From an uncultured delta proteobacterium (GTDB lineage Bacteria > Myxococcota > Myxococcia > Myxococcales > Myxococcaceae): a stretch of 64,000 nt of DNA. Below are positions 56,272 to 64,000 of this stretch, piece by piece. Location: contig CAVYSY010000011.1 in the NCBI GenBank assembly GCA_963771175.1, positions 64,001-128,000 on the forward strand, given 5' to 3'. A program made the translations under genes and the position numbers. Within the stretch, counting starts at the first letter, position 1. Each line of letters begins with the position of its first letter. The notes under the pieces were generated by a model, which worked only from the letters and a program-made list of their open reading frames with translations, was not told the origin of the DNA and did not search any database.

Positions 56272-56862
56272 TCAGCCGCGCAGGTGCGTGGTGTCGTTCC
56301 AGAGATGGAGGACGGGCTGGTCCCCGCCGCTGTCGAAGCCGAGCACGCTGATGGAGGCGGTGTTCAGGGCGAAGAGGCGCCCCTCGGTGGGGGGCAGCCC
56401 CAGCCAGCGCGCGGCGAGCACCCGCAGCAGGTGGCCGTGGGCGAAAACGAGCACGTTGCCCTCCACGGAGCGGGCCTCGGCGACGACGCGGTCGGCGCGC
56501 GCGCCCACGTCTCGTGCCGTCTCGCCGCACGGCACGCCGTCCGTCCACAGCGTCCAGTTGGGGCTGGTGGCGCGGATTTCATCCTTCGTCTTGCCCTCGA
56601 AGGTGCCGTAGTCCCACTCCATCAGGTCCGCGCGCAGCTCGGCCACGTCACCGTAGCCGGCCAGGGCGCACGTCTCGCTCGCGCGGCTCAGGGGGCTCGT
56701 CCACACCGCGGCGAAGTCCCAGGCGCTCAGCGGAGTCCGGAGCACCGTGGCCATGCGGCGGCCCTCCTCCAACAACGGGATGTCCGTGCGTCCGGTGTGC
56801 TGGCCGCTGCGGCTCCACGCGGTTTCTCCATGGCGGACGAGGACGAGAGAGCGAGGCTTCAT
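56272..56862 (-). CDS. Histidine phosphatase (PGM/acid phosphatase family)
   Basis: RHGET, SPLSRA, EWDYG and AHGH. Confidence 0.92.
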   Translation of the reverse strand: MKPRSLVLVRHGETAWSRSGQHTGRTDIPLLEEGRRMATVLRTPLSAWDFAAVWTSPLSRASETCALAGYGDVAELRADLMEWDYGTFEGKTKDEIRATSPNWTLWTDGVPCGETARDVGARADRVVAEARSVEGNVLVFAHGHLLRVLAARWLGLPPTEGRLFALNTASISVLGFDSGGDQPVLHLWNDTTHLRG

Positions 56863-57023
56863 GGGGTTCCTCTTGGATCCGCGCACTCTGCCACCGGGGG
56901 AGGGCTCGGCGGAACACCCCCTGCCCGGGGTGCCTTACCTGTGGGCCTGGGTGCTCCTCCGCAACACCCCGTCTTACGGAGTGTTTCATGGCCCCCGCGG
57001 CCCTTGGGCTTCGAGGCGATTCG

Positions 57024-57056
57024 TGCGACACAACTGCGACACAACTGCGACACAAC
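57024..57056. repeat. Three perfect tandem 11-bp direct repeats
   Basis: TGCGACACAAC at 57024, 57035 and 57046, in the divergent intergenic region. Confidence 0.9.
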
Positions 57057-57130
57057 ATGGTGGAGGCTCGGGGTGCCGGACCCGACCCCCTCTCCCTGTG
57101 AGGGTTTTGCCTTTGGATTTCGACAGAGGG

Positions 57131-59575
57131 ATGGAGCGCTTCGCCTGGTTGTCGTACCGGAAGCCGGGTCGTGTGCTCGCATGTGTGCTGGTGGTGACGC
57201 TCCTCGCGGGCCTGCTCGCCTCGCGACTCGTCTTCCACGGTTCCTTCGTGGAGCTGCTGCCCGCGCATACCCAGGAGGTGCGAGAGCTGGAGGCCGTGTC
57301 CCATAAGGCGGGAGGGGACGGCTATCTGGTCCTGCGCGCCCGGGGAGCGAGCCCGGAGACCCTGCGCCGTTTCGCCCAGGAGCTGGCGCCGCGGCTGGAG
57401 GCGCTGGAGGAGGTCCGCTACGTCGAGTTCCGCTACGACACGCGCTTCTTCGAGGACCGCGCCCTGCTGCTGCTCTCCGCGGAGCAACTGCGTGCCCTGC
57501 GCGAGGACCTCGAGGGTGTGGTCCGGGCGGAGAAGCTCGCGGCCAACCCGCTCTACGTGTCCCTGGAGGACACCCCTCCGCCGTCGCTCGAGGAGCTCGC
57601 CCGCCGTCATGCGCCTCGCGCGGTCGTGCGCGAGTACTTGAGCTCGGCGGACGGCAGCGAGCTGTACCTGTTCGTGAAGCCCTCCGGCCTCGCCGGGGAC
57701 CTCGTCTTCGCCCAACGGCTGTTGACGCGGGTGCAGGCCACGAGCACGGAAGTGGCACGGGGCTTCCCGGGCGTGGAGACGGACGCCACGGGCGTGCACG
57801 TGCTCCGGCTCGAGGAGGACCGGCGGATGCGCCAGGACCTCACGCGCGCCTCGATGCTCTCGTGCGCCATCGCGGCGCTCATCGTCGTCCTGTCCTGCCG
57901 GCGCCTCTCCGCGCTCCTCGTGGTGTGCGCCCCCGTGGGCGTGGGGCTGCTCATCACCTTCGCGGTGGCGCAGCAGACCATCGGCTACCTCAACATCATC
58001 ACCGGCTTCCTCGTCGCCATCCTCATCGGCCTGGGCATCGAGTACGGCCTCCACCTGGTGCTGCGCTACTCCGAGGAGCGCCGCCAGCATCCCGCCGAGG
58101 AGGCGCTCCGGGAGACCATCCTGGGCACCTGGAAGGGCGCGCTGACGTCGGCCTGCACCAACGCCGCCGCCTTCTCCGCGCTCACGCTCGCCGAGTTCCA
58201 GGCCTTCGCCCAGTTCGGGTGGATCGCCGCCTCGGGCGTGATGCTCACGGTGCTGGCCACGTATCTGCTCGGCCCCGCGCTCCTCGCCCTGACCGAGCGG
58301 TTGCGGCCGCTGCGCGCGGAGGCCCCGCTGCCGGCCCGGCCCTACCGCGTGGCCCCGCGCCTGCCCCGGGCCGTGCTGGTGGGCATCGTCGTGGGGACCG
58401 GCGTGCTGGTGGCCTACTCCGCCTCGGTGGTGCGCTTTATCGGCTTCGAGCCCGACATGCGCAAGCTGCGCGGGGAGTTCGCCGCCACGAAGCTCGATGA
58501 TCGCATCATCTCCCAGCTCGGCCGGCGCCACGCGCCCACCGTCTTCCTCACCCAGGACGTCTCGGAGGCGGGCCGGCTCGCGGCCTCGTTGCGCGAGCTC
58601 GAGGCGCGCCATGGCGAGGCTCGGACGTTCGCGGAGATCGTCTCGCTGAGCGACTTCCTGCCGCGCACCGGCGGAGACGTCGAGGCGGAGCGGGCCGCGC
58701 TGCGTGCGTTCGTCGACCGGCTGCCCGAGAGCGCTCGGAGCTCGGAGCGGCTGCGCCCCGCGCTGAGCCGCCTGGAGACGATGCTGAATGCCCGTCCCTT
58801 CGGCGTGGAGGAGCTGCCCGCCGAGGTGCGCCGTCGCTTCACCGCGCTGGATGGAGAGGGCAACTTCGTGCTCGCCTTCAAGCGCGAGTCGCTCTCCGAC
58901 ACGGACGCGCTGCACCGCTTCGGCGAGCAGATGGGCGAGCTGCGCGAGCTGGCCCGTACCCAGGGGCTCCAGTTCCAGGTGCTCGACTCGAACCTCATCG
59001 CCTACCGCATCTTCGAGCTGGTGCGGAAGGATGGGCCCTGGCTGCTGCTCGCCGCCGGGCTCGCGGTGTTCGCGATGATGGTGATGAGCCTGCGCAGCTT
59101 CCGCCGGGCGGGGCTGGTGGCCGGGCCGCTGTACCTCGGGCTCGCCTGTCTGCCGGCGGCGATGCACCTCTACGGGCTGAAGCTCAACTTCATCAACGCG
59201 GTGGTGCTGCCCAACCTGCTGGCGATCGCCGTGGACAACGCGGTGCACCTCTACCACCGCTACCGCGAGGAGGGGCCGGGCTCACTGCCCCACGTGGTGC
59301 GCACCACGGGCGTCGCGGCGGTGGTGGCCACGCTGTCCAATGCGGCGGGCTACGGCGCGCTGCTCACGGCGCGCCACCCGGGGCTGCGCTCCATCGGGGA
59401 GATTGCCCTCCTGGGCGTCGCCTGTGCCTTCCTGGGCACGACGGTGCTGTTCCCGGCCATCCTCGCGCTGCTCGAGCGCCCTCAATCCGGCGCGCCGGGT
59501 GAGGACGTGGACGAGGGCCTGTCGTTGCCGCTCCCGGTGGAGACGGACGAGGAGGAGGCCCGGCGCTCCGCGTGA
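57131..59575 (+). CDS. MMPL/RND-family transporter
   Basis: Two TM bundles, each after a large loop; ILIGLGIEYGLH and LLAIAVDNAVH motifs. Confidence 0.88.
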   Translation: MERFAWLSYRKPGRVLACVLVVTLLAGLLASRLVFHGSFVELLPAHTQEVRELEAVSHKAGGDGYLVLRARGASPETLRRFAQELAPRLEALEEVRYVEFRYDTRFFEDRALLLLSAEQLRALREDLEGVVRAEKLAANPLYVSLEDTPPPSLEELARRHAPRAVVREYLSSADGSELYLFVKPSGLAGDLVFAQRLLTRVQATSTEVARGFPGVETDATGVHVLRLEEDRRMRQDLTRASMLSCAIAALIVVLSCRRLSALLVVCAPVGVGLLITFAVAQQTIGYLNIITGFLVAILIGLGIEYGLHLVLRYSEERRQHPAEEALRETILGTWKGALTSACTNAAAFSALTLAEFQAFAQFGWIAASGVMLTVLATYLLGPALLALTERLRPLRAEAPLPARPYRVAPRLPRAVLVGIVVGTGVLVAYSASVVRFIGFEPDMRKLRGEFAATKLDDRIISQLGRRHAPTVFLTQDVSEAGRLAASLRELEARHGEARTFAEIVSLSDFLPRTGGDVEAERAALRAFVDRLPESARSSERLRPALSRLETMLNARPFGVEELPAEVRRRFTALDGEGNFVLAFKRESLSDTDALHRFGEQMGELRELARTQGLQFQVLDSNLIAYRIFELVRKDGPWLLLAAGLAVFAMMVMSLRSFRRAGLVAGPLYLGLACLPAAMHLYGLKLNFINAVVLPNLLAIAVDNAVHLYHRYREEGPGSLPHVVRTTGVAAVVATLSNAAGYGALLTARHPGLRSIGEIALLGVACAFLGTTVLFPAILALLERPQSGAPGEDVDEGLSLPLPVETDEEEARRSA

Positions 59576-59606
59576 CGGCGGAGCGGTGGGGTGTTAGGTG
59601 TCACGC

Positions 59607-60237
59607 ATGAGCGAGCTCGTGACGATCAGGGTGTGGTCGGACTTCGTCTGACCGTGGTGCTACGTCGGCCTCGTGGAGGTCGAGAAGCTGAAGAAGGAGT
59701 ACGACGTCCAGGTGGACTGGCGTCCGTTCTTCCTGCGTCCGGAGACGCCGCCAGAGGGGCTCCCCCTGCCGGCCTACGTGCGCGAGCGGATGAAGGACCC
59801 GAACAACCCGCTCAAGCTGCCGGGCGGCCAGGGCCGGGTTGAAGATGGTGGAGCGCGAGATCATCCCCTCGACGCGCCGCGCCCACGAGGCGGCGGAGTT
59901 CGCGCGGGACGCACGGGCCGCTCGAGCCGTTCCAGGCGGCGCTGCTGCGGCGCTACTGGAGCGAGGGGCAGGACCTCTGGCAGTGGGACACGCTGCGAGG
60001 CGCGGCGCAGGAGGCGGGCCTGGACCCCGACGCGATGCAGCGCGCGGTGGAGCAGGGCCGCTACCGAACAGGTCGTCGAGGACGCCGTCCGCGAGGCGCG
60101 GGAGCTGGGCATCGCAGGCGGTGCCCACCTTCATCCTCGGGGATCGCTACGCCTTCCAGGGCGCCCAGGAGTACGGCGTCTTCCGCCAGGTGATGGAGCG
60201 GCTGGGCGTCAAGCCGCGCGCCGCGCGTCCGGGTTGA
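59607..60237 (+). CDS. DsbA/FrnE-family oxidoreductase with in-frame TGA (UxxC; candidate selenoprotein); later frameshifts
   Basis: WSDFV-TGA-PWCYVG, WRPFFLRP and VPTF...GAQ; hairpin at 59665-59683. Confidence 0.85.
59665..59683 (+). promoter_or_regulatory. Candidate bacterial SECIS hairpin
   Basis: TCGGCCTC-GTG-GAGGTCGA, starting 13 nt after TGA 59649-59651, with G first in the loop. Confidence 0.6.
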
Positions 60238-60327
60238 CCGGGCGGCTGTAGGGGACCCCGTGGTGTGAATTTCCGCCCGCCCGGCAACTCGTTCGGGCGG
60301 CGCGGCGCTGGGGTATCCTGGGAGGCC

Positions 60328-60978
60328 ATGCTCTTCGGAAAGAAAGAGCCGCCCACGCGCTCGGAGCTCATCATCGAGGCCGATCGCGCTCGCTCCAAGG
60401 GCAAGCTCAAGAAGGCGATCGCCGGGTATCGCAAGGCGCTGGAACTGGAGCCGAAGGATCCGGCCGTCCACGTGAAGCTGGCGCCGTTGCTGGCTCGGGT
60501 GAACGAGAGCGAGGCCTCGCTCCAGAGCTTCCGTGCGGCGGCCCAAGGGCACCTGGACAAGGGGTTCACGGACAAGGCGCTGGCCGTCTACACGCAGGCG
60601 GCGGAGACGTTCCCGGCGCAGGTGAGCCTCTGGCAGCAGGTGGCTCAGATGAACATCGCGCGGGGGCGCCGCGCGGACGCGGTGAGGATGTTCCTGCGAG
60701 GTCGGATCCTCCTGAGCGGCAAGAACGAGCGCCGGGAGGCCATCGCCCTGCTGAAGGAAGCGCTCGCGCTGGAACCCACGCTCTTCGATCCGAGGCTGGA
60801 TCTGGCGCTGCTGCTGGCTCGGCAGAATCAGCCGGCCGAGGCGATGGCGTTGCTCGAACCGATGGCGAAGCAACTGAAGGGTCGACAGCTCCGGCAGGTG
60901 CGCTGGACGATGCTGCGTGTCTCTCCCGGCCTGGGCTCGGCGTGGCGGTGGCTGCGCGTCGCGCTGGCGAGAGGCTGA
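60328..60978 (+). CDS. Tetratricopeptide-repeat protein
   Basis: GGAGG RBS; AIAGYRKALELEP and AIALLKEALALEP repeats. Confidence 0.85.
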   Translation: MLFGKKEPPTRSELIIEADRARSKGKLKKAIAGYRKALELEPKDPAVHVKLAPLLARVNESEASLQSFRAAAQGHLDKGFTDKALAVYTQAAETFPAQVSLWQQVAQMNIARGRRADAVRMFLRGRILLSGKNERREAIALLKEALALEPTLFDPRLDLALLLARQNQPAEAMALLEPMAKQLKGRQLRQVRWTMLRVSPGLGSAWRWLRVALARG

Positions 60979-61033: not shown

Positions 61034-61830
61034 TCAGCGCTTGAGGCCGCGCTTGATCTCCGCGCACACCTGGCGCGCCGCCGCGGGCCCATCGGCCTGG
61101 GCGGCGCGCACGATGGCGCTGCCCACCACCACGCCGTCCGCGTGGGCGGCCACCACCTGGGCCTGCTCGGCGGTGGAGATGCCGAAGCCCGCGACCACCG
61201 GCACCGGCGAGCGGCGCCGCACCAGCTCCAGCCGCTCGGACAGGTCGGCCGGCAGCTCCGCGCGCATGCCCGTCACGCCCGCCACCGACACGCAGTAGAC
61301 GAAGCCACGCGCGTCCTTCGCGATGGACTCCGCGCGCGCCGGCGGCGTGGTGGGCGCGCACAGGGGGATGAGGTCCACCCCTGCCGCGTCGAAGGCCTCG
61401 CGCAGCTCGCGCTCTCCTCGGGAGGCAGGTCCGGCAGGATGGTGCCCGACACGCCGGCTCCCGCGGCCAGCTTCGCGTAGCGCTCCTCGCCCATCGCCAT
61501 CACCACGTTGACGTACGTCATGATGACCAGCGGCGTCTGGGGGCAGCGCTGGCGCACCGCGGGCACCACCTCGTCGCAGCACGCGCTTCAGCGTGGCGCC
61601 GGCCTTCAGCGCCCGCTCGCTGGCGGCCTGGATGACGGGGCCGTCCGCGATGGGGTCGCTGAACGCGACGCCCACCTCCAGCACGTCCGCGCCGCCCTCC
61701 ACCATGGCGCGAACACGTCCACCGAGCGCGAGAGGTCCGGGGTCTCCCGCCATCGCGTAGCGCCACCAGCGCGCACTCGCCGCGCGGCCTGCGCCCGCGC
61801 GAACGCGGCCGCGAGCTCTCCGCGCGCCAT
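61034..61830 (-). CDS. trpA: Tryptophan synthase alpha chain (frameshifted)
   Basis: [32 protein letters not shown] and DGVVVGSA. Confidence 0.92.
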
Positions 61831-63051
61831 CACTGCACCTCCTGCTCGCCCGAAGGCGGGCGGGCATGCGCCGTGCTCGCGATGGTGGCCACGTCCTTGT
61901 CGCCGCGGCCCGAGCAGTTGATGACCAGGTGCTTGCCCTGGCCCCAGCTCTCGCGCCAGCTCGCCGGCGCGCGCGAAGGCGTGACAGGTCTCCAGCGCGG
62001 GCAGGATGCCCTCGGTGCGGCACACCTGGTAGAAGGCCTCGAGCGCCTCGTCGTCCGTGGCGGTGCGCACCTCCAGCCGCCCCGTCTTCGCCAGGTGCGC
62101 GAGCTCGGGACCCACGCCCGGGTAGTCCAGGCCCGCGCTGATGGAGTGCGCCTCCTGGATCTGCCCGTGCTCGTCCTGCAGCACCAGCGAGCGCGAGCCG
62201 TGCAGCACGCCCCGGCTGCCCAGCGTCAGCGAGGCGCCGTGCTCCGCGTGTGCAGGCCGTGGCCGCCGGCCTCCACGCCCACCAGCCGCACGCCCGCGTC
62301 CTCGATGAAGGGGTGCAGCACGCCGATGGCGTTCGAGCCGCCGCCGATGCACGCGACGATGGCGTCCGGCAGCCTGCCGAAGGCCGCCTGCGACTGCACG
62401 CGCAGCTCGTGGCCGATGACGGACTGGAAGTCGCGCACGATGGTGGGGTAGGGGTGCGGCCCCGCCGCGCTGCCGATGACGTAGTAGGTGTCCTGCGACG
62501 CTGGGCCACCCAGGTGCGCATGGCCTCGTTCATCGCGTCCTTGAGCGTGCGCGAGCCCGACTCCACCGCGTGCACCGTGGCCCCCAGCGCGCTCATGCGG
62601 AAGACGTTGAGCGCCTGGCGCTCCACGTCCAGCCGCGCCCATGTAGACCTCGCACGGGCAGGCCGAACAGGGCGCACGCGGTGGCGGTGGCCACGCCGTG
62701 CTGGCCCGCGCCCGTCTCCGCGATGATGCGCTTCTTGCCCATGCGCATCGCCAGCAGCACCTGGCCGATGGTGTTGTTGATTTTGTGCGCGCCCGTGTGC
62801 GCGAGGTCCTCGCGCTTGAGCCACACCTGCGGCGCCACCCCACAGCTCGGTGAGCCGGCGCGCGGGCGTCAGCGGCGTCTCGCGGCCCGACGAACTCGCG
62901 CAGCACCTGCGCCACCTGGGCCTGGAAGGCCGGGTCCCTACGGGCCTCGGCGTAGGCCTGCTCCAGCTCCTGCAGGGCCGGAACGAGCGTCTCGGGTACG
63001 TAGCGGCCGCCGTAAGGGCCCGAAGCGGCCAGGGGCGGTTTGCGTATTCAT
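61830..63051 (-). CDS. trpB: Tryptophan synthase beta chain (frameshifted)
   Basis: [48 protein letters not shown] and EGILPALE. Confidence 0.93.
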
Positions 63052-63060
63052 GGTCGTCCA

Positions 63061-63699
63061 TCACTCCCAGACGCAAGTGCTTCGCGGCGCGCACGAAGGC
63101 GCGCACCGCGTTCGCATTCTTGAGGCCCGGGGCTGACTCCACCCCGCTCGCCACGTCCACGCCGTAGGGCCGGGTGGCCCGCACGGCGGCTTCCAACGTT
63201 GGCCGGGGTGAGGCCACCGGCCACCAGCACCGGCAGCCCGCGTCGCGCGAGCCGCGCCACCAGCGACCAGTCGAAGCCCACGCCCCCGCCGCCGTAGCCC
63301 GGCGCCGCCCCGTCCAGCAGCAGCGCCGCCACGTCGCCCGCGCCCACGTAGGTGCGCGCCCGCTCCACGTCCCGGGCGCCGCGCACCCGCAGCGCCTTGA
63401 TGACGGGCACGCCGTACCCCGAGCAGGCCTCGGGCGGCTCGTCACCGTGGAGCTGCACCGCGGTCAGCCCGCACTCGCGCACGCGGTCGCGGATGAGGTC
63501 CGGCGACTCGTTGACGAACACGCCCACCACCGCGCCCAGCGGCGGGCGCGTGCGCGCCAGCAGCGCCGCCGTCTCCGGCGTCACACAGCGCGGCGAGCGC
63601 GAGTAGAAGTTGAGCCCCAGCGCGTCCGCGCCCGCGTCCCACGCCAGGCGCGCGTCCTCCACGCGGGTGACGCCGCAGATCTTCGACGCGAGCACTCAC
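63061..63699 (-). CDS. trpF: Phosphoribosylanthranilate isomerase (frameshifted)
   Basis: KICG, VGVFVN, VQLHG, GG.G..FDW, AGGL and GVDVASGVE. Confidence 0.92.
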
Positions 63700-64000
63700 G
63701 GTTCACCCATGGGCGCGAGCAGCCGAGCCAGGGCTCGACCCGGCTCCGCGTCGCGCAGCAGGGACTCGCCCACCAGCACCGCGTCCGCTCCCGAGGCCCG
63801 TGCCGCCACGAAGTCCTCGCGTGTCTTGAGGCCGCTCTCCGCCACCAGCGCCTTCGCCCTGCTGCGCAGCGTGGGGATGACCTGCAGCGCGGTGGAGATG
63901 TCCGTGCGCAGCGTGGCCAGGTTGCGGTTGTTGATGCCCACCAACTCCGCGCCCGCCTTCAGTGCGCGCTCGGCGTGCTCCGCCGTGTGGGCTTCCACCA
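63696..64000 (-). CDS. trpC: Indole-3-glycerol-phosphate synthase, 3' part (cut by window edge)
   Basis: VEAH, GINNRNL, AESG and VLVGESL. Confidence 0.9.
   Translation of the reverse strand, partial: VEAHTAEHAERALKAGAELVGINNRNLATLRTDISTALQVIPTLRSRAKALVAESGLKTREDFVAARASGADAVLVGESLLRDAEPGRALARLLAPMGEP

Follow-up and report, generated by a model that had tools for sequence, protein, structure and literature searches.

In the window, by which we mean the whole 64,000-nucleotide stretch of DNA analyzed here (C11:64001-128000 of a 9.83-Mb assembly in 58 contigs), a DsbA/FrnE-like gene is interrupted near its start by an in-frame TGA that is closely followed by a potential hairpin. The locus raises the question of whether this triplet encodes selenocysteine (Sec) or ends translation, and, with the gene also broken into several frames further downstream, whether an intact protein could be made from it. 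The features that bear on the first part of the question are the following:

59607..60237, plus strand: DsbA/FrnE-like predicted selenoprotein gene, in five frame pieces as assembled (~208 codons in intact orthologues)
59649..59651, plus strand: in-frame TGA, predicted Sec codon U15; the U-P-W-C redox motif occupies 59649-59660
59665..59683, plus strand: SECIS-like hairpin with an 8-bp stem and the loop GUG, beginning 13 nt past the UGA
59652..59699, plus strand: codons 16-31, in which synonymous change is suppressed in the TGA forms; overlaps the hairpin

The gene spans 631 nt, from its start codon ATG at 59607-59609 to a terminal stop codon TGA at 60235-60237. The initial annotation had read ATG 59607 as opening a frame that runs through TGA 59649-59651 into PWCYVGL, and re-reading both the sequence and its translation reproduces this exactly: with the TGA taken as U, the protein begins MSELVTIRVWSDFV-U-PWCYVGLVEVEKLKK..., PWCYVGL standing directly after the U. 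The further claim that the triplet falls on the first cysteine of the CPWC motif of the family is also borne out, since the position aligns with the CPWC of FrnE. The Pfam DSBA profile (PF01323, cut-off 25.6 bits) scores 51 bits on codons 1-71 of the window gene and 127.9 bits on an intact orthologue (L028). Among solved structures the closest is FrnE of Deinococcus radiodurans (5cnw/5cp1, E=5e-29; residues 2-195 of the query aligned to 9-215 of the chain), and the CPWC motif of that structure is aligned to the UPWC of the orthologue. NCBIfam holds no dedicated model for the gene, the top match (NF041057) reaching 50.9 bits where the cut-off is 190. The protein is presumably cytoplasmic, because the predicted sequence has no leader before the active site, and in the orthologues the only cysteine besides the Sec position is C18.

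The gene lies between an MMPL-family transporter gene (56747-59575) and a gene for a TPR protein (60325-60978), and these two neighbors give no hint of a pathway for the DsbA-like protein. Its genomic site varies by species: here it is on C11 between the MMPL and TPR genes, and in the relative G017 it is elsewhere. The G017 region (C2:124500-164300, loci L056/L057) comprises the orthologue and a neighboring 412-aa gene, the rest being syntenic with contig C40 of the present genome (249-288 kb); a comparison of the 40 kb around the G017 orthologue with the window found a match at the gene alone. Synteny downstream of the gene is common to the window and five other relatives.

The codon used at position 15 was then compared across orthologues. 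Forty relatives, 17 of them other genomes of the same genus, were searched with the first 71 residues of the window protein. An orthologue with exactly one TGA is found in 10 of the 17 same-genus genomes, 89-99% identical to the query, and all ten genes, when read out, are intact and 207-208 codons long (82-92% DNA identity to the window gene). They are thus single open frames interrupted by the TGA alone, which the gene in the window, as assembled, is not. In named genomes a scan recovered 80 loci, and the motif could be located in 79 of them (L093 ends at residue 67). The 36 loci from Myxococcaceae have TGA in 20 cases and TGC or TGT at the same codon in 16, so that the TGA/TGC alternation that the initial annotation had suggested looking for in orthologues does exist. 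The TGA loci come from Archangium, Vitiosangium, Pyxidicoccus, one Myxococcus sp. and seven Corallococcus; the Cys-codon loci are mostly from Myxococcus, together with C. terminator, C. praedator, Citreicoccus and metagenome-assembled genomes (MAGs). Outside Myxococcaceae (Chloroflexota, Gamma- and Alphaproteobacteria, Actinomycetes and others), a Cys codon is present in all 43 loci. This count overlaps with that of the same-genus relatives, nine of the 20 TGA records being common to both, and the two should not be treated as independent.

SelA is encoded in all five Cys-form genomes tested as well as in all five Sec-form genomes, and hence Sec and Cys alternate within Sec-using lineages; the idea that the choice between them tracks loss of the Sec trait was ruled out by the same five Cys-form genomes. 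A maximum-likelihood tree of the 36 Myxococcaceae proteins, with position 15 masked and midpoint rooting, implies at least three Sec/Cys changes; it retains one sequence (L094) with a very long branch, probably because this locus is frameshifted. One NCBI protein record (P0001, Archangium violaceum, 208 aa) shows C at position 15, which is either a true Cys or a converted U. Every Archangium locus that was read has TGA, in contrast to the C printed in that record.

The hairpin was described in the initial annotation as a stem of 8 bp, one of them G-U, closed by a GUG loop and starting 13 nt downstream of the stop, and the sequence agrees in every detail. After 13 nt (59652-59664), TCGGCCTC at 59665-59672 forms the 5' arm, GTG at 59673-59675 the loop and GAGGTCGA at 59676-59683 the 3' arm; the stem TCGGCCTC/GAGGTCGA has 8 pairs, one of them G-U, and the 3-nt loop opens with G. 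By itself this structure is not beyond chance and is weak evidence: its fold z-score is -1.10, with 26 of 200 shuffled sequences folding at least equally well, and under the lax criteria set in this analysis a comparable downstream hairpin accompanies 20 of the 1332 TGA triplets of the window (1.5%). A match of the region to the Rfam snoRNA family sR53 on the minus strand (18.3 bits against a gathering threshold of 49, E=0.15) was taken as chance.

The weight of the hairpin comes instead from its being conserved in orthologues and linked there with the TGA. An identical 8-bp stem is present in 20 of 20 TGA forms, with the loop GUG in 13 and GGU in 7. The stem recurs, with the loop GGU, in L038, a more distantly related TGA form (49% identity) of a different genus. 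Of the 16 Cys forms, only three have all 8 pairs, each with the loop GCC, and the others have 5-7. The stem of the TGA forms shows no compensatory covariation; it is invariant, and what it displays is conservation only. Part of it is dictated by the protein sequence, with the Cys forms retaining 5-8 of the 8 pairs. Synonymous variation is curtailed around the hairpin in the TGA forms, where it occurs in 3 of 15 degenerate codons within codons 16-31 versus 125 of 181 elsewhere (Fisher p=2.6e-4); the corresponding counts for the Cys forms are 7 of 15 and 119 of 180 (p=0.16). Both p-values are indicative only, the sequences being related. Taken across genomes, the hairpin is strong sequence-level evidence for the predicted Sec reading.

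The initial annotation had named a genome without Sec machinery, with orthologues lacking the TGA, as an outcome that would tell against recoding; selA, selB, selC and selD are all present and orthologues do have the TGA, so this objection fails. The selA gene (C39:363984-365067, minus strand) is in 6 pieces over three frames, whereas 8 of 10 relatives encode SelA in one piece, and selB (C31:280302-282214, minus strand) is in 3 pieces, one of which contains a TGA; a SelB-wing_3 domain (PF09107) is found in selB at 65.1 bits, above the cut-off. Unlike these two, selD and the tRNA-Sec gene are intact in the assembly. The tRNA-Sec scores 71.4 bits and has the anticodon TCA. The selD gene (L015, G000:C26:42756-43685, minus strand; 380.8 bits) has one in-frame TGA in the context ...HCAG-TGA-AAKI..., and SelD is for that reason itself a predicted selenoprotein. 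Judged by its genes, the genome has a complete Sec-machinery set and the organism is a Sec user.

A consequence of the TGA is visible in the databases. The expectation that ORF callers would truncate the gene proved correct: among the 120 best database relatives, 29 have an N-terminal CxxC, and 91 start downstream of it, past the TGA. In 68 of these 91 shortened entries the start is at xEVEKL or xEIEKL, that is, at codon 23, where the sequence has either the hairpin-loop GTG or an ATG. The gene and its soil relatives are thus routinely annotated as N-terminally shortened "DsbA family" proteins without an active site, and reading the UGA as Sec gives the redox center back to these annotated proteins.

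The remaining part of the question concerns the frame breaks. The annotated span 59607-60237 holds for the TGA, the motif and the hairpin, but four frameshifting insertions in the same gene had been left unflagged. Past about codon 71 the frame passes from 0 to +1, +2, 0 and +1, with conserved protein encoded throughout up to the TGA at 60235-60237. A search of indexed sequencing runs did not turn up the assembly's own reads, the best run matching 0.36 of the sampled words of the stretch. Contigs with at least 85% likeness to the stretch were compared from three DNA runs (X1, X2 and X3) and one soil RNA library (X15), those of X2 being ~96% identical to it. The insertions are the following:

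59818 (within 1-2 nt), plus strand: extra base 1, shifting the frame from 0 to +1; left out at 59819 in X2 and X3
59910 (ambiguous, 59910-59919), plus strand: extra base 2; in the contigs two bases are out and one is in, a net one fewer
60067, plus strand: extra base 3; left out at 60064 or 60066 in X1, X2 and X3
60114, plus strand: extra base 4; left out at 60114 in X2 and X3

The X1 contigs break near 60114, and their loose ends run on without extra base 4. In an alignment with the ten same-genus orthologues, all four extra bases are columns found in the window only (10 of 10). The same contigs bear on the TGA. Over 59400-59818 a contig of X1 (record 1) has 7 differences from the stretch, none of them at the TGA or the hairpin, and over 59619-59817 a contig of X15 (record 9) has a single difference, at 59810, so that the TGA and the hairpin are preserved in both contigs. 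The X2 contigs span the whole stretch, with no difference at the TGA among the rows listed. The X15 contig over 59619-59817, although from an RNA library, does not by itself establish transcription.

Other genes of the assembly are broken in a similar manner. The end of trpC together with trpF, trpB and trpA at 61034-63998 (minus strand) is frame-broken, and in trpF, trpB and trpA (61034-63695), 1-3 kb downstream of the DsbA-like gene, the PRAI, PALP and Trp_syntA profiles each match over 2-3 frames. We consider these broken trp genes a sign of assembly indel errors within the window. An 803-aa "ORF" in the trp region crosses several genes in the wrong frame. On contig C40, the counterparts of a relative's five ORFs of 652, 534, 1003, 746 and 336 aa are split into 5, 4, 3, 2 and 2 frame pieces, respectively. 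Indel counts from blastn alignments (78-94% identity) are too noisy to reveal any insertion bias. Because the four insertions are absent from the orthologues and from X1-X3, because selA, the trp genes and the C40 genes are likewise broken, and because completeness is low (81.66% here versus 96-100% in 15 of the 17 same-genus genomes), they most probably reflect errors in the consensus of an indel-rich assembly, not decay. Other "broken genes" of this indel-ridden assembly should, by the same token, not be taken as biology.

The strongest competing account accepts that the selenoprotein family is real and holds that the copy in this strain is a true pseudogene, maybe one sign of a Sec trait in decay. 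Frameshifts, at four in 631 nt, are denser here than in most regions compared, the adjoining TPR gene at 60325-60978 is intact, and both selA and selB are in several frame pieces, as decay of the trait would have it. Of the 14 codon changes unique to the window, 6 are synonymous and 8 alter the residue, which does not clearly show purifying selection and says little either way. These observations have to be set against an assembly in which trpF, trpB, trpA and the C40 genes are similarly broken, a state that a free-living bacterium would be unlikely to tolerate, and which falls short of its genus in completeness. Conserved protein, moreover, is still encoded by every frame piece of the DsbA-like gene, none of which has an additional stop or a deletion, and selD and the tRNA-Sec gene have stayed intact. 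We regard a pseudogene as unlikely, with a small share of the probability.

Two further accounts deny the TGA its role as a Sec codon. If it were a premature stop or a base-call error, with a hairpin arising by chance in GC-rich coding sequence, then the unremarkable fold score, the base rate of such hairpins per TGA and the error-prone assembly would all be as observed; the same TGA would not, however, be expected in 20 independent genome records from at least four genera and in contigs from four sequencing runs, nor would the hairpin be expected to track it, and indels are the kind of error that this assembly shows. This explanation is accordingly close to negligible. Alternatively, the UGA might be read through as Trp or Cys by a near-cognate tRNA, or translation might restart at the loop GUG, codon 23, and it is indeed this GTG (or an ATG there) that is the called start in most of the 91 shortened entries. 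A product starting at codon 23 would nevertheless be missing the entire UxxC center along with the opening beta strand of the DSBA domain, codons 1-14 upstream of the TGA are conserved as protein, and the Sec machinery is complete, which leaves readthrough or restart very improbable.

The TGA at 59649-59651 is, on the sequence evidence, almost certainly a genuine Sec codon, and the recoded UPWC active site that had been proposed for this gene finds support in the Sec machinery, the codon alternation and the conservation of the hairpin. With high confidence we favor the reading that this is a genuine gene for a DsbA/FrnE-type selenoprotein in which the insertions are assembly errors; since the insertions most probably arose in the consensus, an intact protein of about 208 residues is probably made. 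The gene product would be a small thiol-disulfide oxidoreductase of the DsbA/FrnE type with an N-terminal redox center, U15-P-W-C18. By analogy with fdhF, SelB carrying Sec-tRNA(Sec) would bind the hairpin at 59665-59683 as the ribosome reaches the UGA, and selenocysteine would be put in at 59649-59651 in place of termination. The Sec/Cys pair of the enzyme could then cycle through a selenenylsulfide. We infer Sec insertion and SelB binding, as we do the enzyme substrate.

Among the relatives there is also a second Sec-containing DsbA subfamily, with the motif U-P-F/Y-C (loci L041-L049, in relatives G002, G005, G006, G008, G014, G015, G025, G037 and G040). It resembles the window's type in its DSBA domain (125 bits), in a TGA at the equivalent motif position and in 37-48% identity to the first 71 residues; it differs in having a conserved hairpin of its own, GCAGCCU-GGUC-AGGCUGC, ~26 nt past the UGA. 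In searches with the 71-aa query, the 17 same-genus genomes have the window's type only in ten cases, the second subfamily only in six and neither in one, and the second subfamily was not found in the window's own genome. Because the two subfamilies are mutually exclusive among these 17 genomes and their hairpins are unrelated, they may be functional alternates.

The three Cys forms with the full 8-bp stem and the loop GCC are L081, L082 and L094, from Corallococcus terminator CA054A, C. praedator and a Myxococcaceae MAG, and the tree places them among Sec-form Corallococcus. Their stem has the look of a fossil SECIS, a remnant from before a recent replacement of Sec by Cys. A joint reading of these observations is possible, and we offer it tentatively: Sec/Cys toggling would be live in Myxococcaceae, the two subfamilies would be alternates, and the compact hairpin, whose GUG is miscalled as a start, would be a minimal variant of the bacterial SECIS. 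In any case, the Sec forms and the Cys forms, a few of which keep the hairpin, make up a natural series for the study of Sec/Cys exchange.

How does this gene compare with known systems? Recoding of UGA by SelB and a bacterial SECIS is exemplified by E. coli fdhF. The present gene is like that system in that its UGA is closely followed by a hairpin whose apical loop opens with G and in that the genome encodes a SelB with a winged-helix C-terminus; it differs in its perfect 8-bp stem and 3-nt loop (GUG or GGU), without a bulged U. FrnE, a cytoplasmic disulfide isomerase (COG2761) the C-terminal extension of which bears a further Cys pair, shares the aligned motif (CPWC to UPWC) and a DsbA fold without a signal peptide. 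It differs in having Cys in place of Sec and in its length (260 aa versus ~208 here), and the extension with the extra Cys pair is absent here, the orthologues ending at 206-208 aa.

The closest counterpart is a published selenoprotein family. DsbA-like selenoproteins (COG2761, UxxC) were reported from the Sargasso Sea in 2005 (PMC1088965) and listed in 2006 for Anaeromyxobacter dehalogenans and others (PMC1794560), a 2016 count gives 41 organisms (PMC5029168), and a 2026 review has the entry "DsbA-like protein form 1, PF01323, UxxC" (PMC13188914). The statement in the initial annotation that UxxC DsbA-like selenoproteins occur in Deltaproteobacteria agrees with the 2006 list, which includes A. 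dehalogenans (PMC1794560). A tRNA-Sec is noted in the genome paper of Archangium gephyra (PMC5441343). In a full-text literature search combining Myxococcus, Corallococcus or Archangium with selenoprotein or selenocysteine, the protein was not described, though supplementary tables may list it. Going by the published descriptions, the gene matches DsbA-like form 1 in its PF01323 domain, in a UxxC motif with Sec first, in the loop-G hairpin after the UGA, in its widespread Cys homologues and in a Sec-using Myxococcota host. It differs in its hosts, which are aerobic, Archangium-like Myxococcaceae of soil, and in that the present copy is frameshifted as assembled. The gene is a further member of the known DsbA-like selenoprotein family, with no new mechanism, and it brings aerobic, large-genome myxobacteria among the hosts of that family.
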